64,000 nucleotides of DNA, taken from contig CAVQUB010000015.1 of the NCBI GenBank assembly GCA_963716725.1, forward strand, positions 1-64,000, given 5' to 3'. How positions within the stretch are numbered: the first letter of the stretch is position 1; each line of letters starts with the position of its first letter. The translations under genes were made by a program, and so were the position numbers. This DNA comes from an uncultured delta proteobacterium (GTDB lineage Bacteria; Myxococcota_A; Polyangia; Polyangiales; Polyangiaceae). The notes beneath the pieces are model-generated. The model did not search any database and was not told where the DNA came from. It saw nothing but the letters and a program-made list of their open reading frames with translations. This document shows positions 1-13,630 of the stretch, in pieces.

Positions 1-22
1 AGAGCTGACGGATATGGGGAGT
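1..22 (+). repeat. Left terminal inverted repeat of RIT element (cut by window edge)
   Basis: 22/22 reverse-complement match to 4062-4083. Confidence 0.9.
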
Positions 23-176
23 TGCTGCCTCCCGGCTGCGTGTTCTCCTGTGGGATCGGCGAAATTCGCTCCCCATATTCATGAGCCCGCTGGCGTCGAA
101 TGACCTCGAGGTTTTCGCCCCCGGACGCCTGTATGGCCACGAGCGCCGGTTCATGGCGTTCGGAAGGAGAGCGAGC

Positions 177-737
177 ATGAGCATGAGCAAGTTGAATGAA
201 TCGGACCTCGGGGCGATGCGCCTGCCCGAGCTACAGCAGAGGTACGTCGAGGTTGTCGGCGAGCCGACGCGGTGCCCGAGCAAGGCGTGGCTGGTGCGTA
301 AGATCCTGGAAGCCGCGATGACGGGCGCGGCGTCGACGTCAGCGAAGCCGACCGCGTCGCTCAAGACAGCGTCAGTCGATGAGCTCCAGGCGCGGCACCT
401 CGAACTGATCGGGAGGCCCACGAGCTCTCGTCATGTCGGCTACTTGCGATGGCGCCTGCGCCAAGCCGAGCGCGGACTGATCCGCGTCGGTGCCGAGCCG
501 CGCGCTGCCCATGGCGCCGACGATGTCCTCGTGCTTCCGTTGCGCATGCCCGCGCCGGTCGTGGAGCGACTCGATGAGGCTCGGCGACGGCTTGGCCTGA
601 GAAGCCGCGCCGAGCTCTTTCGCCGCGCGCTGCACCGCTACCTCGTCGACTTCGACGAGGCCGACGTCGCCGCCTTCCTACGCCGTGGCGACGGTGGCGA
701 TGCCGACGCGCCGCCGGTCAGCGAGGCCAGGAGCTGA
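177..737 (+). CDS. DUF2924-like tandem helical repeats plus C-terminal ribbon-helix-helix (CopG-like) DNA-binding protein; RIT passenger
   Basis: SD ggaagga before ATG 177. Two repeats (LPELQQRYVEVVGEPT / VDELQARHLELIGRPT). RHH-like tail LPLRMPAPVVERLDEARRRLGLRSRAELFRRAL. Confidence 0.75.
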   Translation: MSMSKLNESDLGAMRLPELQQRYVEVVGEPTRCPSKAWLVRKILEAAMTGAASTSAKPTASLKTASVDELQARHLELIGRPTSSRHVGYLRWRLRQAERGLIRVGAEPRAAHGADDVLVLPLRMPAPVVERLDEARRRLGLRSRAELFRRALHRYLVDFDEADVAAFLRRGDGGDADAPPVSEARS

Positions 738-1700
738 TCGGGCGGGCTGAACGCCCCCTTGCGCAGCGAGGGCAGCTTCACGGCGTCGAGCGCCGCAAGC
801 TTCTCGGTCGGATCGGCCTGCAGGTACATCTCCGTGGTCTGCTGGCTCGCGTGCCCGAGCCAGAGAGCCACCTTGCGGATGTCGCCCGTCGCCTGGAGGA
901 TGCTCATCGCGCAGGTGTGCCGCATCACGTGCGGCGAGACTCGGCGCTTCGCGATGGACGGACACGCCGTCGTCGCTGCCTCCACGTGCTTTTCCAAGAT
1001 GTGCGCGCAGCCCCACCGCGAGATGCAACCACCACGCGCGTTGAGGAACACCTCGGGTACGAGGGCATCGCCACGCACGGCGAGCCAGGCACGGACGGCG
1101 TCGGCGACCTCCTTCCAGAGGACGAGACCACGCTGCCTACGACCCTTGCCTCGGACTCGCAGCTCCAGGTACGCGCCGTCGAACGAGAGATCGTCGAGGC
1201 GCAGGCCGACGATCTCCGAGACGCGCAGGCCGCCAGCGAAGCCCATGAGCAAGAGCGCGCGGTCGCGGATGCCCAAGCGCGTCGTCGGATCGGGCGCATC
1301 GAGCAGGGCCTTCGCCTCCGCGGCGTCGACGTGGCGCACGAGCATGACGTCGGTGCGCTGCATCGGGATGGCGAGCACGCGGCGCACCTGCTCGACGCCG
1401 ACGGAACACGGTACTCGACGAAGCGCATGAACGACTTGAGCGCGACGAGTCGTCGCGTTGCGGGTCCTGCGCGCTGTTGCCGCGCTCAGCCTGCAGGTGC
1501 GCGAGGAACTCGAGCCAGAGCGGCGCGTCGAGCTGCTCGAGCGTCAGTGCCGAGGGCGCTACGCCGAGCCGCTTCGTCGTGAAGGCGAAGAGCAGCTTGA
1601 ACGTGTACGCGTAGGCGTCGACGGTGTGCCGGCTGGCCTGGCGCTCCTGCGGCAGCCGCTCGCGGAGGTAGGCGGTGAGGTGCGGGGCGAGTGGCGTCAT
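638..1700 (-). CDS. Tyrosine recombinase RitC (stitched across frameshifts near 1390-1470)
   Basis: Start MTPLAPHLTAYLRERL with SD ggagg. Catalytic motifs GLRVSE, HVMRHT, LGH, TEMY. Confidence 0.85.
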
Positions 1701-2612
1701 GGCCGACCTCCCGTCAGCGAAGGCCGGCCGGACCCGGTCCGCGATGTCGCGCATCAGGCGGGGCGTCGCCTGCAGGTACCAGTAGGTGTCGGCGACGTGC
1801 GTGTGTCCGAGGTAGGTCGAGAGCGCGAGCATGTGCTGGGCGACGCGGTCGCGGCCGTCGGGACACGCCTCGAGAGCGCGCACGGCGAAGGTGTGCCGGA
1901 TGTCGTGGATGCGTGGCTGCGACTGGTCCGGAGGCTTCTCGAGACCGGCGAGCTCGCGCATCTGGACGAACATCTTGCGCGCGCTGTTGTGGGCGAGGCG
2001 CTGCCCGCGAGAGCCGAGGAACAGGCTGGATGGTGGCGTGCCGATGGTGCGACGGCGCTGCTGGTAGCGGTCGAGTCCCTCTCGCGCAGTCTCATGCAAT
2101 GGGACCAGGCGCGTCTTCTGGAACTTCGTCTTGCGGATGAGCAGCCCCTCCGGCGTCACGTCATCCAGGTCGAGCGCCATCGCCTCCGAGACACGCAGCC
2201 CCGTCGCAAACAGCAGCGCGAAGAAGGTCTGTGCCGTGAGCACCCGCATCGATGAAGGTGGCCCAAGCGCGCTCGCGGCGTCGATGAGCCGCCGCGCCTC
2301 GTCGGGGCTGTAGATGTGCGGCACGATCTGACGGGGCACGCGCGGGAAGACGTGGCTGCTCGGCACCTCGTGACGCGGATCCTCAGCGCGTACATGGCGG
2401 GCGAAGAGCACGAGTCTCTGCAAACGATGATGGCGCACACCCGCGGTGCCCCCTTCGGCGGCCCACTCGACCGCCGTCGCTGCGAGCACATGTGTCTGAC
2501 CTCGCTCTTTCGCGAAGGCGGCGAAGTCGTAGAGCATCCGCTCCGGCGCCGCCAACTCGAAGCCGAGCGCGCGACGGGTCCTCAGGTAGTCGGTGACGAG
2601 CTGCTTCAGCAT
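1697..2612 (-). CDS. Tyrosine recombinase RitB (3' end approximate; as read it runs in frame into RitC)
   Basis: Start [18 protein letters not shown] overlaps the RitA 3' end. Motifs GLRVSE, KTKFQKTRLVP, HDIRHTFAV, LGH, TYWY. Confidence 0.88.
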
Positions 2613-3928
2613 GACGGAACCTCCACGAGCCAACGCTGCGCGATCGCCCCGACGTCCGCGATCGGCATCGGGGGCGCCTTCATCGCCCGGGCATTTGCGT
2701 CGCTCGTCATCCACGGCTGCGCGACCTGCCCGAGCAAGCGCTGGTCGACGCGGGCATAGACGGTCGTTGTCTCGACCGAGCGATGCCGGAGAATGGCCGC
2801 TATGCCCTCGAGCGAAGCCCCTTCGCGCAGCATCGCGGTCGCCGCCGAGTGCCGAAGAAGATGGGCGCCAAAGGATGGCGCGTCGACGCCGGCGCGGTGA
2901 ATCGCTCGCCCGACCAGCTGAGCGATCGACGAGTTGTTGGTGATGCTGCGCCATGGCGCGCGTGCAGTCAGGAACACGTGCTCGTGGTCGATGCGTGGGC
3001 GGCCCCGCTCCAGATAAGCGAGGATGGCGTCGCCGACATCCTGGGGGATCGGCAGCCAAGTCTCGCGCCGACCCTTGCCGACGAGACGGAGTCGGGCGCG
3101 CTTCCAGTCGAGATCGGTGGGGCGCAGCGCGAGGACGTCACCCGCACGGAGGCCCAGTCGCGCAAGCAGAAGCATGATGGCTCGATCGCGAAGCCCGGTC
3201 GCAGACGAGGCGTCGCAGCTCGCAAGCAGCTTCTCGACGTCGTCGGGCGGAAGGTGTTTCGGCAGCGCCGTCTGCGACCAGCGAGCGGGCCGGGGGATGC
3301 CATCGGCGAGGTCCGCGCTGCACAGGCCGCGCACCGCGAGCTGCCGGAGAAACATTCGCGTCGCGGTAACGACCTGCTCGCCCTTGCTGGCGCCGTGGCC
3401 CTCCGAGAGCGCGAGCACTGCTCGCCGGAGCGCCGCGACCGAGTACGCGCTTGGCTCTCGGCCGACGTGCTCGAGCAGCTTCCGCACGACGCGCGAGTAC
3501 GCCTTCACCGTCCACTCGCTCACACCGCACTGCTGCCGCATCCACGTGATGAAGTCCTCGAGCAGTGGCTCATCGACGGCAGTTGTGGTCGCGCGAGGAA
3601 CAGCGCCGACGGCCTGCAGGTAGCGACGGAACACGCGAGCTCGTGCCAGGGCGCGATCGTGCTCGCCAACGCGCTGTCCTTCGCAGTCGCACACCGGAAC
3701 GTGAGCCACGAACGAGGCAATGACGTCGTCGTCGAGCGCGGCAAGAGGGACCCCGCTCGCCGCCAGCCAGCGCCCGAGGTGAACGGCGTGGCGCAGGCAC
3801 GAACCTCCGGTCTGAAAGCTATAGCCCTGTGCGGCCAACCACGCCGCGAACCCATCCATATGCGGGCCCGCGGGACTCGCGCGGAACCCGTCCAGCACGA
3901 ACCGTCTCTCGAAGTATTTCTCCAGCAT
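2606..3928 (-). CDS. Tyrosine recombinase RitA
   Basis: 440 aa intact ORF with LGLRAGD, HLLRHS, LRH and TTVYARV motifs; SD aaggag upstream. Confidence 0.92.
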
Positions 3929-4061
3929 GTCGTCTCCTTGGTGATCGACCGGGATCAGCCCGGCCGCCGGAGACGACGCCGCGAATATGTGGAGTTGTCG
4001 AGGCTCGCTGCGGCCACAACGCGCGGAGCTTTCTGAACTCTCAAGCGGTGGCGAGCCCGCG

Positions 4062-4083
4062 ACTCCCCATATCCGTCAGCTCT
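4062..4083 (-). repeat. Right terminal inverted repeat of RIT element
   Basis: actccccatatccgtcagctct is the reverse complement of 1-22. Confidence 0.9.
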
Positions 4084-4110
4084 ACATACCGGCGATTATG
4101 GAGAGCACCC

Positions 4111-4397
4111 CATAATCGGCGCTACCTCATCTGGAAGATCCGCGAGGCCGAGAAGGGCCGCATCCCGGTCGGCCCGCGCAAGACGCGCGAGCGCAACGGC
4201 GAGCCGCGTCGACGTGAAGATCCTCCCGCTGCGGCTCGAGGCCGAGGTCGTCGAGCGCATGGACGAGGCGTGGCGCACGCGCGGCATCAAGAACCGCATG
4301 GAGTTCTTCCGCCGCGCGCTCGGCCACTACCTCACGCACCTCGGCGCCGAGGACGCCGCCGCGCTCTTCACGAACGCGGGCGCCGCCGAGCGCGTGA
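4111..4397 (+). pseudogene. 3' half of a DUF2924-like/RHH gene interrupted by the RIT element (end approximate)
   Basis: No start codon. Begins at the element boundary with [21 protein letters not shown], then (frameshift ~4207) [20 protein letters not shown]...FRRAL. Colinear with the C-terminal half of 177-737. Confidence 0.8.
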
Positions 4398-4461
4398 AGG
4401 GCGCGGAGATCCAAGGGGCGTCGGCGGTCGGCAAGCGCGACCTGCCGCGACGCCCCAAGTC

Positions 4462-4602
4462 CGCGGAAGGTCGCGCCTATTCCAAGTGCCTGAAAATACA
4501 TCGGAAACAGCCGTGTTCGGCCTTGCTAGGGGCGCGAACGGAAGCCTGTATGTCCTCACGCGACGGGCACTGGGCCCCGCGCGAAACGCGAGGACGACGA
4601 CG
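4462..4602 (+). promoter_or_regulatory. Conserved upstream element, copy 1 (promoter-like core plus leader hairpin over SD)
   Basis: Direct repeat of 6748-6885; core 4519-4555 matches 6805-6841 at 36/37. Confidence 0.75.
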
Positions 4603-5523
<921 letters not shown>

Positions 5524-5624
5524 GGACGGGCGCGGGGCCGGCCAGCGACGCCGGCCCTGGACTCGCCCGCGAACGGAGGCGATGGATGACTACGGCGGGT
5601 CTCGGCCCGCGGCGAGATGAGAAG

Positions 5625-6075
5625 ATGGGACAGGTGCTCTACTTCGCGTACGGCTCGAACCTCGACGACGAGCAGATGCGCTCGCGGTGCGCGAGCGCGC
5701 AGCCCGTGGCGCGCGCGGTGCTGCCCAACTACGCGCTCGCCTTCGGCGGCTTCAGCCACCGCTGGGACGGGGCGGTCGCGAGCGTCGTGCGGGCCACGCG
5801 GCGCCCGCGTCGAGGGGCTCCTCTACCGCCTCGACGACGCGGACCTCCGCGCGCTCGATCGCTTCGAGGGCCATCCGTTCGCCTACGAGCGCGTCGTGAA
5901 GGTGGTGCTCGACGAGCACGGGCGCCGCCGCCGCGCGACGACGTACCTGCAGCCCGAGGACGGCTTCGAGCCCTGGGCGCCGCAGCCCGGCTACTTCCGC
6001 GTGCTGTGGCGCGCGTACGCCCGCCTGGGCTTCGACGTCGCGCCCCTGGCGACCGCAGCGGGGGTGGAGCCATGA
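5625..6075 (+). CDS. Gamma-glutamylcyclotransferase family protein 1 (frameshift ~5795)
   Basis: YFAYGSNL ... LDRFEG motifs. Confidence 0.85.
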
Positions 6076-6472
6076 ACGCGCCCAAGGGCCAGCGTGGCGC
6101 GCCCACGCGCGTCTTCGTCTACGGGACGCTCCTCGCGGGCGAGCCGAACCACCGGCTCCTCGCGGGCGCCCGGCTCGTCGCGGAGGCGAGGACCAAGCCC
6201 GCGTTCGAGCTGCGCGACCTCGGCGCGTTCCCCGGGCTCGTGCGCGGTGGCGAGCACGCGGTCGCCGGCGAGGTGTATGAGGTCGACGAGGCCGACGCTC
6301 GCCGCGCTCGACCGGCTCGAAGGGCACCCGCGCTTCTACCGGCGCACGCGCATCGCCCTCGAGGACGGCGCCGCCGTCGAGACCTACCTCCTCGCGCCCG
6401 AGCAGGTCGAAGGTCGTCCCGTCATCGACTCGGGCAGCTGGCGAGCGCGCCGGAAGGAGATCGACAGCATGA
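6072..6472 (+). CDS. Gamma-glutamylcyclotransferase (AIG2-like) family protein 2 (frameshift ~6293; 3' end approximate)
   Basis: VFVYGTL, GEVYEV and LDRLEG motifs; ATGA overlap with previous gene. Confidence 0.85.
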
Positions 6473-6711
6473 AGATCGTGATGAGAGACGGGCGCGTGTT
6501 CCAAGGCACCGCCCTGCAGATCGTGAAGGCGATGCAGGACATCGCGTTCGGCGTCGAGGACTTCACGGTGCCGAAGTACATCGAGTGGGTCGTCGCCAAC
6601 GCGCGCAAGTTCGAGGAGGTCGAGCTCGACGTGAAGGGCGAGACCGACGAGGAGCTGGCCGCGTCGCTCGTCGCCGAGATGCTCCGCACCGGGCTCACGC
6701 GGCGGATGTAG
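6469..6711 (+). CDS. Hypothetical protein (80 aa)
   Basis: SD aaggaga before ATG 6469; typical codon usage. Confidence 0.7.
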
Positions 6712-6747
6712 GCCGATCGGCCTCCGTCGGCTTCGCGGCCCGAAGGG

Positions 6748-6885
6748 CGCGGAACCTCGCGACTATTCCAACCGCTCGAAAAGACATCGGAAACCGACGT
6801 TCTTGGCCTTGCTAGGGGCGCGAACCGAAGCCTGTATGTCCCTCGCAACGGGCGACGAGCCGCCCTGCAGAACGCGAGGACGACG
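6748..6885 (+). promoter_or_regulatory. Conserved upstream element, copy 2
   Basis: Direct repeat of 4462-4602, also ending gaggacgacgATG. Confidence 0.75.
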
Positions 6886-7188
6886 ATGCGGACCACGAGC
6901 CAGAACACGCAGACGACGAAGACGGTGAGCCAGGGCGAGAGCCGCTACGGGACGGCCGAGCCGCAGATCGAGATCCGGCTCCCGAAGGGCACGAGCCACC
7001 GCCTGGTGAACGCCGCGCTCCACAAGCTCGCCGCCGACGTCGAGCTGGCCACGCCCGAGCGCGAGCGCTGGATCGTCCAGACCGAGAGCTTCTACGACGC
7101 CCGCGGCCGCGTGTACCTCGAGCTGGCCGACGCGACGCCGGCCGAGGCCGAGCGGGGGATGGCGATGCTCAAGAAGCTGGTGGGCTGA
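6886..7188 (+). CDS. Hypothetical protein (100 aa)
   Basis: Intact ORF directly behind the repeated leader and SD. Confidence 0.75.
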   Translation: MRTTSQNTQTTKTVSQGESRYGTAEPQIEIRLPKGTSHRLVNAALHKLAADVELATPERERWIVQTESFYDARGRVYLELADATPAEAERGMAMLKKLVG

Positions 7189-7208
7189 GCCCGAGGAGCG
7201 GGGGCGCA

Positions 7209-7238
7209 AATAGCCGCTTTGAAGGGGAAGTGGCTATT
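7209..7238. other. AT-richer dyad (11-bp arms, 8-bp spacer): recombination site or bidirectional terminator
   Basis: aatagccgctt-tgaagggg-aagtggctatt between convergent genes. Confidence 0.45.
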
Positions 7239-8383
7239 CGCCAGCCAGGCGCCGCCAGGACCGCACCAGCGTCTCGCTCGGCGCGCGAAACATCGTCCTC
7301 CGTCGTGCCGCGCCCGAGCGTGAGGCGCACCGAGCCGAGCGCGTCCTCGGGCGCGACGCCCATCGCGAGGATCACCGCCGACGCGCTCTCGTGGCCCTCG
7401 TGGCACGCCGAGCCCGGTCGAGGCGGCGACCTCCGGCGCGCCGGCCAGCACGGCGTCGCCGGTGGCGCGCGGGAAGCGGACGTTGAGCGTGTTCGGCAGG
7501 CGCAGCTCGCGGTGGCCGTTGAGCGCCAGCCCGGGCACGGCGGCGGCGAGACGCTCCCAGAGCGCGTCGCGGAGCGCGCGCATGCGCGAGGCCGCCGCCT
7601 CGAGGTCGCGCCCCACCGCCTCGCACGCGGCGCCGAGCCCGACGATGGAGGCGACGTTCTCGGTGCCCGGCCGCAGGCCGCGCTCGTGGCCCGCGCCGAG
7701 CGCGAACGGCACGAGCGGCGTGCCGCGCCTCACGTAGAGCGCGCCGACGCCCTTGGGCGCGTAGAGCTTGTGGCCGGCGACGGACAGCAGGTCGACGTCG
7801 AGCTCGCGCACGTCGCACCGGCACCTTGCCGAGCGACTGCGCGGCGTCGGTGTGAATGAGCGCGCCCACCGCGCGCGCCAGCGCGGCGAGCTCGGCGACG
7901 GGCTGGAGCACGCCGGTCTCGTTGTTCGAGTGCATCACGGTGACCAGCGCGGTGTCGCCGTCGATCGCGCTCGCGCGCCTCGTCGACGCGGGCCCGCCCG
8001 TCGGCGTCGACGCCGAGGCGGGTGACGCTCCGCGCCGTGCCGCTCGAGCCACGCGCACGGGCGCGCGGTCGCCGGGTGCTCGATGACGGTCGTGACGATG
8101 TGGCTGCGCCCTTCGCGCGCCTCGGCCGACGCCGCGGATGGCGAGGTTGTTCGCCTCGGTGCCGCCCGACGTGAAGACGACCTCGTCGGCGTCGCAGCCG
8201 AGCAGCGCGCGCGACCTGGTCGCGCGCCCGCGCGACGGCGCTCGCGCGCGCGCGTGCCGTAGACGTGGCCGCTCGACGGGTTGCCGAAGTGCTCGCGCAG
8301 GTACGGCAGCATCGCGTCGACCACCTCGGGCAGGAGCGGCGTCGTCGCGTTGTGGTCGAGGTAGATGGGGTCGCCGGGGTCAT
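7235..8383 (-). CDS. Cysteine desulfurase (NifS/IscS family), multiply frameshifted; 3' end approximate
   Basis: IYLDHNATTP, FGNPSS, MHSNNETG, HTDAAQ, AGHKLYAPKG, RPGTEN and reconstructed STGSACH. Confidence 0.88.
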
Positions 8384-9084
8384 GATGGAGGCTCGCGCTT
8401 GTCCGCTGCGAGCGCGAGGAACGCCGCGCCCGGGGCATGGAGACGGGTGAGGAACGGCTCGACGGGAGCCACGATCCGGGCGGCAAGGCCGCTCGGCGGA
8501 AAGAAGACGGAGCCGCGCAGGTCGGCCACGTGAAGGCCCGCGCTCCGAGCGAGCCGCTCGAGTTCGCCGCGTGACCGGAACTGTGCTCGTCGCCACGTGC
8601 TCGCACCGAGCCAACCTCGGACGCGGCGCTCCGCAGCCCACACGCTGAAGCGGCCAAGCTCACCGAGGACGACGCGACCGCCCGGGACGAGCACACGAGC
8701 CATCTCGCGAACGGCAAGCCGGGCATCCGGCACGAAGCAGAGCACGGTCACTGCGACGACCACGTCGAAGGAGGCATCGTCGAACGGCAACTGCTCGGCG
8801 CGCCCCTGTCGGAGGGTCACGTCGACTCCGCGCGAGGCAGCACGCGCACGGGCTGCGTCGAGTATCTTCTGCTCGAGGTCGAGCGCCGTGACGATGGCAC
8901 CGCGCACGGCAGCCTCGATGGCGTAGGTGCCATCTCCGGTGCCGACGTCGAGCACGCGCTTGCCACGAAGCGAGCCGAGGAGCTCGAAGACGACGTTCGT
9001 CTCCACGCGCTCGGTGATGCTTGCCGAGCGGTCGTCGCTCGCCAGCGAGCGTAGGTCTGTGCGGCGACCACCGGCTCCGGTCAC
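8380..9084 (-). CDS. Class I SAM-dependent methyltransferase (frameshifts near N-terminus)
   Basis: VLDVGTGDG, LPFDDASFD and RVLVPGG motifs. Confidence 0.85.
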   Translation of the reverse strand: MTGAGGRRTDLRSLASDDRSASITERVETNVVFELLGSLRGKRVLDVGTGDGTYAIEAAVRGAIVTALDLEQKILDAARARAASRGVDVTLRQGRAEQLPFDDASFDVVVAVTVLCFVPDARLAVREMARVLVPGGRVVLGELGRFSVWAAERRVRGWLGASTWRRAQFRSRGELERLARSAGLHVADLRGSVFFPPSGLAARIVAPVEPFLTRLHAPGAAFLALAADKREPPS

Positions 9085-10046
9085 GACGCCCACTCCTGCA
9101 TCCACGGCTTCGCGCGGTAGCGATCCCACGCGTCCGGCAGCACCGTGACGACCGGCCCGTCGAGACCGCCGCGCGCGGCGAGCCGCAGCGCCGCGACCAC
9201 GTTCGTGCCCGCCGAGCCGCCGACGAGCAGGCCCTCCTCGCGCACGAGCCGCTTCACCATCGCGAAGCTCTCCTCGTCGCTGACGCGCTCGGCGCCGTCG
9301 AGCACGTCGCGGTGCAGGTTCTCGGGCGCCTCGCTGCCGCCGATGCCCTCGACGGCGTAGGAGCCGTCGGCGCCGAGCGTGCCCGGTCTCGACCCAATCC
9401 GCGAGCCCCGAGCCCACCGGATCGGCGAGCACGACGCGAACGCCGGGAAGCGCCGCCTTCAGCCGCCGCCCGACGCCGGTGATGGTTCCGCCGGTGCCGG
9501 CGCCGGCGACGAACGCGCCGACGCGGCCGTCGGTCTGCTCGAGGATCTCCGCACCCGTCGTCTCCTCGTGGACGCGGACGTTCGCGGGGTTCCTGAACTG
9601 GTCGGTGAGGAACCAGCCGTGCTCCTCGGCCATCCGCTGCGCGACGTTGCGGAAGTTGTCGGGGCTCGACGGCGGCGCGTTCGGCGTGATGACGACCTCG
9701 CGCGCCGAGCGACGGCGAGCGCGACGCGCTTGTCGACGGACATCTTCTCCGGCATCACGCAGACGAGCCCGTAGCCGCGCGCCGCCGCGACGAGCGCGAG
9801 CCCGACGCCGGTGTTGCCGGCGGTCGCCTCGATCAGCGTCATGCCCGGGCGGAGCACGCTCGCGTTCCTCGGCGTCGTCGACGATGGCGAGCGGCGATGC
9901 GGTCCTTGATCGACCCGCCGGGGTTCAGGTGCTCGCACTTCACGAGCACCGGCACCGGCAAGCCCGCGCGCGATGCGCTCGAGCGGCACCAGCGGCGTGC
10001 GCCCGATGTGCTGCAGGATGCCTTGACGATCGCGCTTCACGCTCAC
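9081..10046 (-). CDS. PLP-dependent cysteine synthase / cystathionine beta-synthase family, frameshifted
   Basis: [29 protein letters not shown] and [11 protein letters not shown]. Confidence 0.88.
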
Positions 10047-10048
10047 CC

Positions 10049-11214
10049 CTACAGCTTGGTGTACAGCCACGACTTCTCGAAGAGCACCTTGCCGAGGTGC
10101 CAGCGCCAGCTCGGCGCGCGCACGGTCACGAGCGGGCTTCGGCTCGGCGTAGAAGTCGCCGCCGCCGAAGCCGGCCTTGCCGCCGCCGATCTCGATGAAG
10201 CACTCGCCGTGGCCGTCGAAGCGCTCGCCGCCGGCCGCGCCCGGCGATCGACCGAGCGCGATGTTCTTGGCGACGACCTCGGCCTGGCCGTGCGCGAACA
10301 CGCCGGCCTTCGGCAGCGGCTTGCCGAGCTTCGAGCGGGATCGAGACGACGTCGCCGATCGCGTAGACGCCCGGGAAGCGCGTCTCGAGCGTGTGGCGGT
10401 CGACGGAGATCCAGCCGCTCTCGCCCGCGAGCGCGCTCTCGCGCACCACGCGCGGCGCGCGGTGGGGCGGGACGTACGCGAGCAGGTCGAAGTCCGCGCT
10501 GCGCACCGTTCGCGAACTCGAGCCGGCGCGCCGTCGCGTCGACCGACGTCACCTGGTGCTCGGGGTGATAGGGGATGCCCTTGGCCTGCGAGCAGCTGCT
10601 TCACCGCGCCCGACATCTCGGGACCCGCGACGCCCATCGGGCCGGGCTCGGCGGCGTAGACGTCGACCGTGACCGCGTCGCGAAGACCGCGCTTGCGAAG
10701 GTACGCATCGATGAGCAGCGCGGCCTCGTAGGGCGCCGCCGGGCACTTGTAGGCGGGCGCCGCGGTCAGCACGACGATGCGCCCGCTTTCGCGTGGACTC
10801 GAGCGCCGCGCGCAGCGCTCGGCGCCGGCCAGCGTGTAGAAGTTGTGCCCCGCGTCCTGCGAGGCCGGGCACCGTCTCGGGAGCCAGCTCGGCTCCGAGC
10901 GTGACGACGAGGTAGTCGGCCTCGAGCGTCTCGCCGGCCACCGTGACCCGACGCGCCTCGGGATCGATCTTCTCGACCTCGCCGAGGCGGACCTCGATGC
11001 CCTTGCGCTCGAGGCGCTTGAGCGGCCGCTTGATGCTGTCCGCCTCGCGCAGACCGACCATCAGCCACAGGAGCGAGGGCGCGAACAGGTGCTCGCGCTC
11101 TCGGTCGACGAGCACGACGCGATGCTGGCGCGGCAGACGCTTCCGCAGCTCGCGGGCGGCCACGACGCCGCCGACGCCGCCGCCGAGGATGACGATCGTC
11201 TTGGGCGCGCTCAT
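10049..11214 (-). CDS. Sulfide:quinone oxidoreductase-like FAD-dependent oxidoreductase, frameshifted
   Basis: [29 protein letters not shown] and CFIE. Confidence 0.8.
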
Positions 11215-11573
11215 CAGAACACCAGCGTCTTGTCGGCCCACTGGGTCCAGTCGGTGAGCTCCTCGAGCGTGCTTCGCTTGGTGCCCTCGGCGAGCTCGGC
11301 GTCGGCGATGCCGCGGGCGTCCATGCACGTCCCGCAGACGCCGACCTCGACGCCGTGGCGCGCGGGCCCCTTCAGCATCACCTCGAGGTTGTAGTAGCCC
11401 TGCGGGACCTTCTGGTTGGCCTTCGCGCAGCTGCCGCGTCGCCGATGAGGAAGACCTTCACCTCCTCGCCCTCGCGCTTCGACGAGGGAGCCGGCGAGCC
11501 GCAGCGCGTTGTAGCTGCGCTCGGTGCCGTAGGGTGGGTCGTTCAGGATGAAGAGCGTCTTTGCCATGGTCAT
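11214..11573 (-). CDS. DsrE/YchN-family sulfur relay protein
   Basis: NDPPYGTERSYNALRLA, CGTCMDARG and WADKTLVF. Confidence 0.88.
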   Translation of the reverse strand: MTMAKTLFILNDPPYGTERSYNALRLAGSLVEARGRGGEGLPHRRRGSCAKANQKVPQGYYNLEVMLKGPARHGVEVGVCGTCMDARGIADAELAEGTKRSTLEELTDWTQWADKTLVF

Positions 11574-11691
11574 GTTCCTTGTGCGGCCAGTTGCATACAG
11601 GCTTGCGTCCCCCGCAGAGGGACCGAGCCGACGAGAACCCGCTCGCGCGGAAACTGCTCAGGCGCATGCCCCAGGCGCGCACCCTTGAAGC

Positions 11692-12380
11692 TCACGAACG
11701 CGCGCCTTCGCGCTCGGCCTCGACGCGCCAGCCGCGGGCACGCCAGTCGACGACGCCTTGCTCCATGACGGTGGGCCGCGAAGCCCTTCTTGCGCAGCAG
11801 CTCGACGGCCTCGACGGCCATCACGCAGTAGGGGCCGCGGCAGTAGGCGACGACCTCGCGGTCCTTCGGCAGCTCCTTGAGCCGGGCCTTCAGCTCGCCG
11901 AGCGGAATCGAGAGCGCGCCGGGGATGTGCCCCGCGCGGTACTCCTCGGGCGGCCGCACATCGAGGACGGTCACCTCGCCGTTCCTCACGCGGCGCAGCA
12001 GCTCGTCGCTCTCGACGGCCTCCATCGCTCCGCGCTCCTCGAAGTACTCGCGCGCGACCTGCTCGACCTCGGCGAGGCGCGACTCGGCGAGCCCGCGCAG
12101 CGCGAAGAAGAAGCGTGCAGACCTCGTCGTCGGCCAGGCGGTACTCGACGTAGAGCCCCTTCTTCTCGGCCTCGACGAGCCGCGCAGCGCGGAGCACCTG
12201 CAGGTGCTGCGAAGCGTTCGCGACGGAGATGCCGGCCTGCTCGGCGAGCGCTTCGACGGTCCGAGGGCCCTGGCAGAGGAGGTCGAGCAACTCGAGCCGC
12301 TTGGGAGCCGAGATGGCTTTCCCGAGCCGAGCGAACTGCTCGTAGATGCTGTCCTTGAACCGCCGAGGGGGCATCGTCAT
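11692..12380 (-). CDS. ArsR/SmtB regulator fused to a rhodanese domain, frameshifted
   Basis: N-terminal RLELLDLLCQG...SQHLQVLR HTH; C-terminal LDVRPPEEY..GHIPGA and YCRGPYC. Confidence 0.88.
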
Positions 12381-12856: not shown

Positions 12857-13545
12857 TCATGCGATTGCCGCGAGCATCGCGACGTCCCTTCTCCCACCGG
12901 GCTTCTTCGGCGTGATCAGGAGCCGCTCGCCATGCACGTCGACGTGGTCGATGAGGTGGAGCGCGTGGGTCCGGCCGATGTCGTGGCCGCGCAGGATGAA
13001 GTTCCGCCACGCCGTGATGACCTCAGCGGTCGGCGGCCACCGGTGGCGGTGCGCGAGCATTCCCGCTCGCTCGGGCGAGCACACCACGTCGGCGATCGCC
13101 GTGAGCACGGCGCCGTCCAGGTCTTCGACGCGCACGCGGAAGCCCGGGCACGCCTTCTTCCCCGCACGCAGCGTCTTGCGGCAGTTGTAGCAGCAGTACG
13201 AGTAGGTCGCGCCGTCGAGCGACTTCCCCGAGGTCTCGAGCTGGTAGCTCGACCCGCAGAGCCCGCAGCGTGCAAGGCCGGTGAGGACGCGCGGCTTGGT
13301 CGATGCGCGCCCCGGCAACTCGGTCGGGCGCCGCTGCTCGCAGAGCTCTTCCACGAGCGCGTGGGTCTTCGCGCCGATGATCGGCTCGACGGGCAACGTG
13401 ATCCACTTGTCCGGTGACTGGAGCTTTCCGCGATGATGCACGCCCCAATGCACGACTCCACCTGCCGCCGATTGCTGGAGCGTCTGGATCACGGCGCCCT
13501 TGTCCCAGAGGCTCCCCTTTCGCGTGCGAAAGCCGCGCGCAATCG
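12857..13545 (-). pseudogene. Large serine recombinase fragment (recombinase domain end plus zinc ribbon; no catalytic N-terminus)
   Basis: RGFRTRKGSLW, VEPII, LTGLARCGLCG and YNC...KKACPG; no resolvase domain upstream. Confidence 0.75.
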
Positions 13546-13630
13546 ACAGCCTCCGCGACCATCTGAAGGGGCGAGACCGTCTCGCCGCCATCGCCCTGGA
13601 GCGCGCAGGGCTCGTGCCGCGCGTCGTCCC

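Follow-up and report, generated by a model that had tools for sequence, protein, structure and literature searches.

The window analysed here is a stretch of 64,000 nucleotides (nt) from an uncultured delta proteobacterium of the family Polyangiaceae (GCA_963716725.1, contig CAVQUB010000015.1). It comprises the first 64 kb of contig C15 of its assembly (G000:C15:1-64000), which has 35 contigs and is 84% complete; window position 1 is thus also the contig start. Positions 1-4122 are occupied by a RIT element, single-copy in this assembly, which contains the recombinase genes ritA, ritB and ritC and a fourth gene, termed here the passenger. Just past its right end lies the start-less 3' part of a gene, termed here X, coding for a ribbon-helix-helix (RHH) regulator-like protein. 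The original prediction for this DNA held that the element carries a complete, diverged homologue of the gene that it disrupts, and this is what we find: the passenger is an intact open reading frame (ORF; 177-737) inside the left end, on the same strand as the X frame, which opens at 4111. The unit reads in the order terminus, passenger, ritC, ritB, ritA, terminus, 6-nt spacer and 20-bp palindrome (Table 1). From comparison with its relatives, we are highly confident that this clade of RITs inserts at one particular codon of X-like genes, and once in a second gene, Y, carrying the passenger along with it.

In the portions of the literature available to us, RITs are described as having three recombinase genes, ~34-bp inverted repeats and end palindromes, with reported insertion sites in the transposase gene of a Tn6049-like transposon and in radC of an integrative and conjugative element (PMC3414803, PMC5737581, PMC10214605, PMC8138268). 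RITs are widespread; according to PMC10214605 (Table 1), nobody has yet reproduced their movement in the laboratory, and their target specificity is listed as not tested. As far as the accessible accounts of described RITs go (Van Houdt et al. 2009, 2012, PMC3414803; Nielsen et al. 2017, PMC5737581), the present element shares with them the ritA-ritB-ritC order, short overlaps between the genes, terminal inverted repeats, an end palindrome and insertion into genes of other mobile elements. Judged by their sequences, the recombinase genes form a regular RIT trio: they follow one another on one strand, the ritA stop codon (2606-2608) overlaps the ritB start (2612), and all three translations retain the HxxR...Y signature of putative catalytic residues (HLLRHS...VYARV in RitA, HDIRHT...WYLQA in RitB and HVMRHT...MYLQA in RitC). 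The terminal inverted repeat and end palindrome expected of a RIT are likewise present. Unlike the described RITs, which in the same accounts measure ~3.5 kb and hold three genes only, the units of this clade measure ~4.17 kb and have a conserved fourth gene that is homologous to the target; its 3' end overlaps that of ritC by 100 nt. Hence, the window RIT is a variant by composition with a typical recombinase trio.

The ends that had been predicted for the element hold as regards the inverted repeat, which pairs 1-42 with 4042-4083. The left end, however, is truncated by the contig start, and the true right junction lies at ~4122/4123 rather than at 4111, target sequence running from 4123 (TACCTC). 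The left terminus in the window is without its outermost TATGT and spacer. In a sister genome from a different genus of the same family (G300), which is 93.4% identical over window 1-7190, the left inverted repeat extends ~44 nt farther outward and contains the palindrome. The pair of recombinase-type half-sites inside the left end has the same arrangement at the right end and in relatives.

Table 1. Features of the RIT element and its right flank in the window.
Feature	Position	Strand	Remarks
Left terminal inverted repeat	1..42		42 nt, 81% complementary to 4042-4083; cut by contig start
Inverted recombinase-type half-site pair (GATATGGGGAG ... CTCCCCATAT)	4..86		Arms 4-21 and 69-86, 83%; putative recombinase binding sites
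Passenger, 186 aa	177..737	+	Two helix-loop-helix modules and C-terminal RHH domain; diverged X homologue
ritC, tyrosine recombinase	638..1700	-	Phage_integrase 97.4 bits; frame breaks near 1396, 1452 and 1469
ritB, tyrosine recombinase	1704..2612	-	Phage_integrase 81.3 bits
ritA, tyrosine recombinase, 440 aa	2606..3928	-	Intact; Phage_integrase 98.4 bits; 97% identical in G300
Right terminal inverted repeat	4042..4088		Ends in terminus GCTCTACATA (4079-4088)
Spacer CCGGCGA, terminus to palindrome	4089..4095		Variable among copies; frequently repeats the target 6-mer in inverted form; probable 'coupling' or strand-exchange segment
20-bp palindrome TTATGGAGAGCACCCCATAA = TTATGG-AGAGCACC-CCATAA	4096..4115		Resembles two RIT termini joined end to end
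Spacer or target overlap TCGGCGC	4116..4122		Corresponds to CCGCCGC of uninterrupted X
X 3' part (RHH regulator-like), start-less	4123..4397	+	Frame changes near 4208 and 4386 relative to G300
Downstream prophage module: amidoligase, two GGACT-like genes, small ORF	4603..7190	+	Synteny with G300 and G210

The target is best understood from a genome in which X is uninterrupted (G210). DNA homology to this intact X starts at 4117 of the window and runs at 85% identity over 4117-6900; the first residues of the window fragment, HN, are encoded by the palindrome and not by X. The X product comprises two helix-loop-helix modules and an RHH domain, and the insertion falls at the 6 bp preceding TACCT, in the codons ..RR|YL.. 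(X site DNA ..GACGACCGCCGCTACCTCATCTGGAAGATCC..). X heads an operon in a prophage, with synteny to G300 and G210 stopping near 7190. In G210, X and Y are uninterrupted and divergent, lying ~8.3 kb apart, and the genes in this interval are for a tail-like protein, an amidase or endolysin and a DUF6900 protein; hence, the carrier is a prophage or prophage remnant with serine integrase, tail and endolysin genes. The original prediction of a DUF2924-like/RHH target belonging to a larger mobile element thereby finds a concrete form. We also considered whether the flanking X or Y genes could start inside the element, and rejected this: in G300 the open frame has no in-frame ATG, GTG or TTG upstream of HNRRYL.

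A search of the G000 assembly with the passenger (tblastn) returned the X stretch as its sole match, at 53% identity over 53 aa and 59% over 17 aa (joint E 1.7e-11), bearing out a colinear and clearly diverged relationship. Against the full-length X of G210 the identity is 36%; over the RHH half, identity to X is ~53%, and the passenger preserves the LPLR strand and the helices of the domain. It scores 38.2 bits against Pfam RHH_1 (cutoff 20.5), the window X fragment 21.6 bits. With DUF2924 (cutoff 31.2) the passenger reaches 18.2 bits, over the N-terminal ~50 positions of the model only, and the full G210 X 25.0 bits, as against 155.6 bits for Y, a true DUF2924 gene; passenger and X thus carry a motif in common with DUF2924 and are not members of it by Pfam's rule. 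An AlphaFold model of the passenger (mean pLDDT 73) displays two helix-loop-helix modules, a strand at 116-125 and two helices. A fold search with the whole model gave nothing significant, its weak local rows (all E >1) including the Rho N-terminal motif, SAP-like domains and RHH antitoxins; a sigma-70 promoter scan for the gene found no site, and PHROGs holds no family for it. The protein collection contains 116 passenger homologues, many of them on contigs about as long as the unit itself (~4.0-4.4 kb). Across 66 pairs, the median pairwise dN/dS (ratio of nonsynonymous to synonymous substitution rates) is 0.27 for the passenger, next to 0.24 for ritA, 0.25 for ritB and 0.15 for ritC, so the passenger, as is the case for the recombinases, evolves under purifying selection. 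At its counterpart of the insertion point, passenger DNA reads ..GTCGCG TAYYTGCGATGGCGG.. as against ..CCGCCGC TACCTCATCTGGAAGATCC.. in the target, a difference that is consistent, and we saw no RIT inside a passenger.

To define the clade, we took loci with a RitA at least 52% identical to that of the window. A scan with an alignment of 40 passengers recovered 11 genome loci and 19 metagenome loci (a single-passenger scan of the genome contigs had given none), the former in Polyangiaceae, Sorangium, Myxococcus, other myxobacterial bins and one bin labelled Gemmatimonadaceae. At all loci with this clade's rit genes the passenger is present too, its position unchanged. When every end was read by script, 32 junctions proved informative, each at the same codon of an X-like gene or, in one case, in Y. 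Left out of the count were ends stopping in the terminus, or having <~90 nt of flank and no match; it includes near-duplicates, i.e., one element in two samples (L115/L116, L118/L119). Palindrome and an outward-reading 3' part occur together at 20 of the 32 (19 with X, one with Y), the other 12 having an inward-reading 5' part of X and no palindrome; the palindrome is therefore seen at 20/20 3'-side and 0/12 5'-side junctions. The checks that had been proposed, namely that relatives should keep both passenger and insertion codon, thus came out in favour of the prediction. Further, both halves of X flank the element on one contig in eight simple insertions (L096, L097, L103, L112, L114, L115, L118 and L119), and a ninth is split across two contigs of the genome G649 (L094, L134); the simple insertion originally proposed accordingly exists among the relatives, though not, as detailed below, in the window copy.

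None of 20 uninterrupted X-like loci has rit genes within ~8 kb. Among 383 genomes of the family, a RitA at least 69% identical to that of the window is found in six, the next best match being 47%. In distant, passenger-less RIT loci, the passenger was beside ritC in none of 10 and a similar one-sided palindrome was present in six of 10; such RITs insert in sites other than X. One of them (L176, G652:C360; RitA 43%) cleanly splits a gene for an IS91-family transposase (1915-3144 and 6532-7188), so that its Zn_Tnp_IS91 and Y2_Tnp parts lie on opposite sides.

The relationship between passenger and target was examined in a maximum-likelihood tree of the C-terminal ~100 residues (59 distinct rows, 102 columns, midpoint root only), from which four broken rows were dropped and for which the window X was trimmed to its in-frame part. 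All 21 distinct passengers form one clade (support 100/99; 200/200 bootstrap trees) that is nested among the X genes; hence, by this phylogeny, the passenger was acquired once and is not a local duplicate, in agreement with what had been argued from its divergence alone. The X genes that adjoin RITs are by contrast scattered over the tree and mixed with uninterrupted ones, with eight label changes, at least five of which are forced by well-supported branches, and this indicates many independent insertions into different X genes. With such insertions in several genomes and, on the X tree, in at least 5-8 distinct branches, past movement of the RIT unit is implied.

The junctions also suggest how it might have done so. 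The 6 nt adjoining the termini and the palindrome are variable among copies; in six of the eight simple insertions the same 6-mer (with at most one mismatch) is found at both target junctions, and termini and 6-mers together form an 11-6-11 arrangement like that of dif or lox core sites. Relative to X, the RIT core is found either way round, the palindrome staying constantly on the 3' side, and the asymmetric centre of the palindrome itself occurs in both orientations relative to the target, being flipped between G000 and G300. We therefore place strand exchange in the 6-bp spacers, by analogy with dif- or lox-type core sites, rather than at the palindrome centre. The palindrome would travel with the element and end up on the 3' side of the target. 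A crossover at the palindrome centre, which we had considered, is unlikely given that the asymmetric centre is seen both ways, and the notion of the palindrome as target or footprint within X was discarded, as it is absent at the insertion site of the 20 uninterrupted X genes whose site DNA was compared. No palindrome was found in loci without a RIT, and throughout the 383 family genomes each X-linked palindrome adjoined one. As a separate observation, RIT-type 20-bp palindromes occur at L133 (G641:C387:17614) and L124 (G408:C19, two sites 41 kb apart), the one in G641 lying outside any X. No rit gene at >=40% identity was found within 1.5 kb of these, weaker matches being filtered out. Inverted copies of 7 nt lie on either side of one of these palindromes, which may represent orphan ends or miniature elements.

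While the simple insertions are flanked by both halves of X, the window copy does not appear to follow this pattern. The 5' half of X is absent from the whole G000 assembly, and searches of its other contigs for 5'X, Y or a second RIT end found none of them. In G300 the left flank is the outward-reading 3' part of Y, beyond which come a small ORF and a large serine recombinase; the uninterrupted Y of G210 and its recombinase match this flank at 78% DNA identity, and the X protein of G210 matches the G300 fragment at 93.5%. On contig L094 (G649:C169), X of the same prophage is interrupted by a simple RIT insertion, with 5'X next to the passenger end, and the matching 3'X with palindrome is on the second contig, L134. 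Since G300 has a 3'Y flank, G210 has intact X and Y, and L094 has a simple insertion, we favour the following course of events. One RIT unit would have entered X; another would have entered Y, beside the serine integrase of the prophage; recombination between the two would then have deleted 5'X and 5'Y along with ~8 kb of late genes, so that 3'Y|RIT|3'X was left. Thus, we think it likely that the window copy was rearranged by recombination between two insertions and is no longer a simple one. Two elements in all, those of G300 and L100, are flanked by two 3' parts. A second X copy in G300 is cut by its contig end exactly at the junction, which hints at a second, unassembled RIT. Two observations can be added here. 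The palindrome pairs of the two-3'-part elements (L031 7570-7589 and 11690-11709 in G300; L100 4142 and 8289) are identical, and direct rather than inverted. In L094 (~900-990), Y is 5'-truncated, with a RIT-free break 45 nt past the RIT site and ~2 kb missing relative to G210.

Two other accounts of the window copy have to be set against this. It could still be a simple insertion whose 5'X lay just upstream of position 1 and was left unassembled; nine relatives have that arrangement and the left flank of G000 is indeed unassembled, but we hold this to be improbable, because G300, with the same downstream genes and 93.4% identity over 7.2 kb, has 3'Y in that place and 5'X is nowhere in an assembly that is 84% complete. 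The absence of the upstream half was in fact named in advance as an outcome that would speak against a simple insertion here. Or the pairing of passenger and target could be mimicked by misassembly or chance resemblance, since the contig begins inside a repeat and single-base indels are many in the region. We give this hardly any credence, for the four-gene unit and its junction are seen again in >25 independent genome and metagenome contigs, and also in contigs of four other runs. Over its first 7.2 kb the window differs from G300 by 446 mismatches and 19 indels; 16 of the 19 are of a single base, and in 14 of these 16 the window has the additional base. They disrupt ritC three times, the ritB stop (an additional base near 1716 makes the ritB frame continue into ritC, a junction that is clean in G300), X, the amidoligase gene and others. 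The ritC and ritB indels are missing from the contigs of all four other metagenome runs, and long ORFs deeper in the window are intact. The bias towards inserted bases, together with the location at a contig end, suggests that the extra bases in 1-7190 may be consensus errors, real decay being the alternative. When sequencing runs were searched for the words of the window, none contained more than 0.20 of them.

As for the passenger, the likeliest of the roles that we weighed, though a tentative one, is that it would supply an X-type DNA-binding activity in trans; the element could then interrupt X and still leave functional the prophage that takes it from cell to cell. In favour of a substitute role we count that the passenger is full-length, selected, retains the RHH features, is recoded at the insertion site, and is the sole full-length member of the X family found in G000 and G300. 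Substitution for X is on these sequence-based grounds a possibility that we advance tentatively. Its fuller form, in which the RIT lineage domesticated a copy of its own target, recoded at the site so that it cannot itself be hit and replacing X in trans, is to be taken more tentatively still. A different regulatory role has much the same starting points: the passenger might act against the carrier and silence or rewire the prophage, be it as an X-like repressor or as a dominant-negative partner, or it might control ritABC. It belongs to the RHH proteins, its paralogue in the prophage heads an operon, and its strong divergence from X outside the RHH domain would suit such a role. We consider this rather unlikely as it stands, although our results do not separate it from the substitute role.

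It is also conceivable that the passenger is a recombination accessory, i.e., a directionality, architectural or target-selection factor comparable to TnpC, Srap or GinD (see below), which would bind DNA near X and draw the Rit recombinases to it, in which case the homology to X would reflect shared DNA recognition and not replacement. The passenger is of a DNA-binding protein type and its presence goes with the targeting of X. Against such a role, RHH repressors usually bind at promoters, and the insertion point here lies within a coding region. Further, passenger-less RITs have a like end architecture and, in one instance, a clean split of a single gene; because they insert site-specifically without such a protein, a core role in recombination is argued against, and because they show the same ends and clean gene split, the codon-level choice of site seems to reside in the recombinases. 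In its favour, other tyrosine-recombinase transposons do require a small fourth protein (PMC10214605). On balance the accessory role strikes us as less plausible than either a substitute or a regulator.

Returning to the explanation that we prefer, in which an insertion pattern specific to X, the rearrangement of the window copy and a function for the passenger are combined, we assign to it as a whole a probability of roughly 0.55. Several considerations weigh against it. The path through two insertions and a deletion is a reconstruction, a one-step recombination of a RIT end with the Y site being an alternative, and the left flank of G000 is deduced from G300 alone. The broken frames of ritC and ritB in the window may mean that this copy is dead, or else that the assembly has errors close to the contig end. 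As the passenger was acquired a single time, its link with target choice counts as one evolutionary event. Identity between passenger and X is low outside the RHH domain and need not imply equal DNA specificity, and the role of the passenger is read from sequence, fold model and phylogeny. The two orientations of the core could reflect in-place inversion or insertion either way, and the Gemmatimonadaceae label of the L100 bin could not be checked.

Several other tyrosine-recombinase elements offer points of comparison, taken from the accessible part of PMC10214605. Like the present clade, Tn554, strand-biased circularizing elements (SEs) and GInts combine several tyrosine recombinases with a small extra protein (TnpC of Tn554, Srap of SEs and GinD of GInts), insert site-specifically and carry ~6 bp of flank. 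They differ in that, by the same source, their fourth protein is unrelated to the target and they are without inverted-repeat ends and a one-sided palindrome (PMC10214605). In the literature that we could cover, which did not extend to Ricker et al. 2013, there was no mention of target-homologous cargo in RITs, and none of DUF2924 in the context of RIT cargo.

Gene replacement on insertion has precedents of another kind. Temperate phages and islands that integrate in genes such as icd or those for tRNAs restore the displaced gene end in cis by way of attP. In contrast, the gene brought along here is a whole diverged paralogue with its own start, which would act in trans, and the halves of the target stay broken. 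Inteins, group I introns and homing endonucleases are selfish elements that occupy conserved coding motifs, often in phage genes, with the gene being restored by splicing. The present clade resembles them in being aimed at a conserved coding motif; no splicing signal was seen here.

The surroundings of the element yielded a few observations in their own right. A conserved leader of ~150 nt is repeated in the prophage module, at 4440-4610 and 6726-6896 of the window and at 12036-12200 and 14310-14475 of L031, with three copies in L062. It sits upstream of the amidoligase gene and of the small ORF, has an invariant core (..GCCTTGCT..GCCTGTA.GTCC..) and ends in GAGGACGACGA just before the start codon. 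Rfam gave no match to it, nor to anything else in window 1-12000; a phage promoter or leader present in several copies is one possibility. A second serine recombinase, reduced to its zinc-ribbon part, and a fragment of a pyridoxal phosphate (PLP)-dependent enzyme are found at 12860-13630 and 9084-9458, respectively, both on the minus strand, and the first ~14 kb of the contig resembles a patchwork of broken mobile-element genes. In G300, to the left of the serine recombinase (L031 2-4211), a gene for a 1232-aa P-loop protein and a methyltransferase-like gene resemble what we take to be a BREX-type defence module. Elsewhere in G000, the end of contig C20 consists of GGGGTTTT repeats and the starts of C14 and C22 are AT-rich, as opposed to a genome that is GC-rich wherever read; these ends may represent ciliate-type telomeres or other foreign DNA in the bin.

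What the clade offers in the first place is a defined target, a single codon of a prophage gene for which natural empty sites, simple insertions and rearranged sites are available together, and with it a testable model of the DNA exchange site and of the role of the end palindrome. It is also a rare case of a transposon that retains, apparently under selection, a relative of the gene that it disrupts. RITs appear in this light as agents that remodel prophages, ~8 kb of late genes having probably been lost here. Should the passenger indeed substitute for its target, the clade would exemplify a novel form of parasitism between mobile elements, in which the exploited element survives. To our knowledge, such a spare-part strategy has not been described for any transposon; if true, a transposon that brings its own spare part could ride on temperate phages without crippling them.

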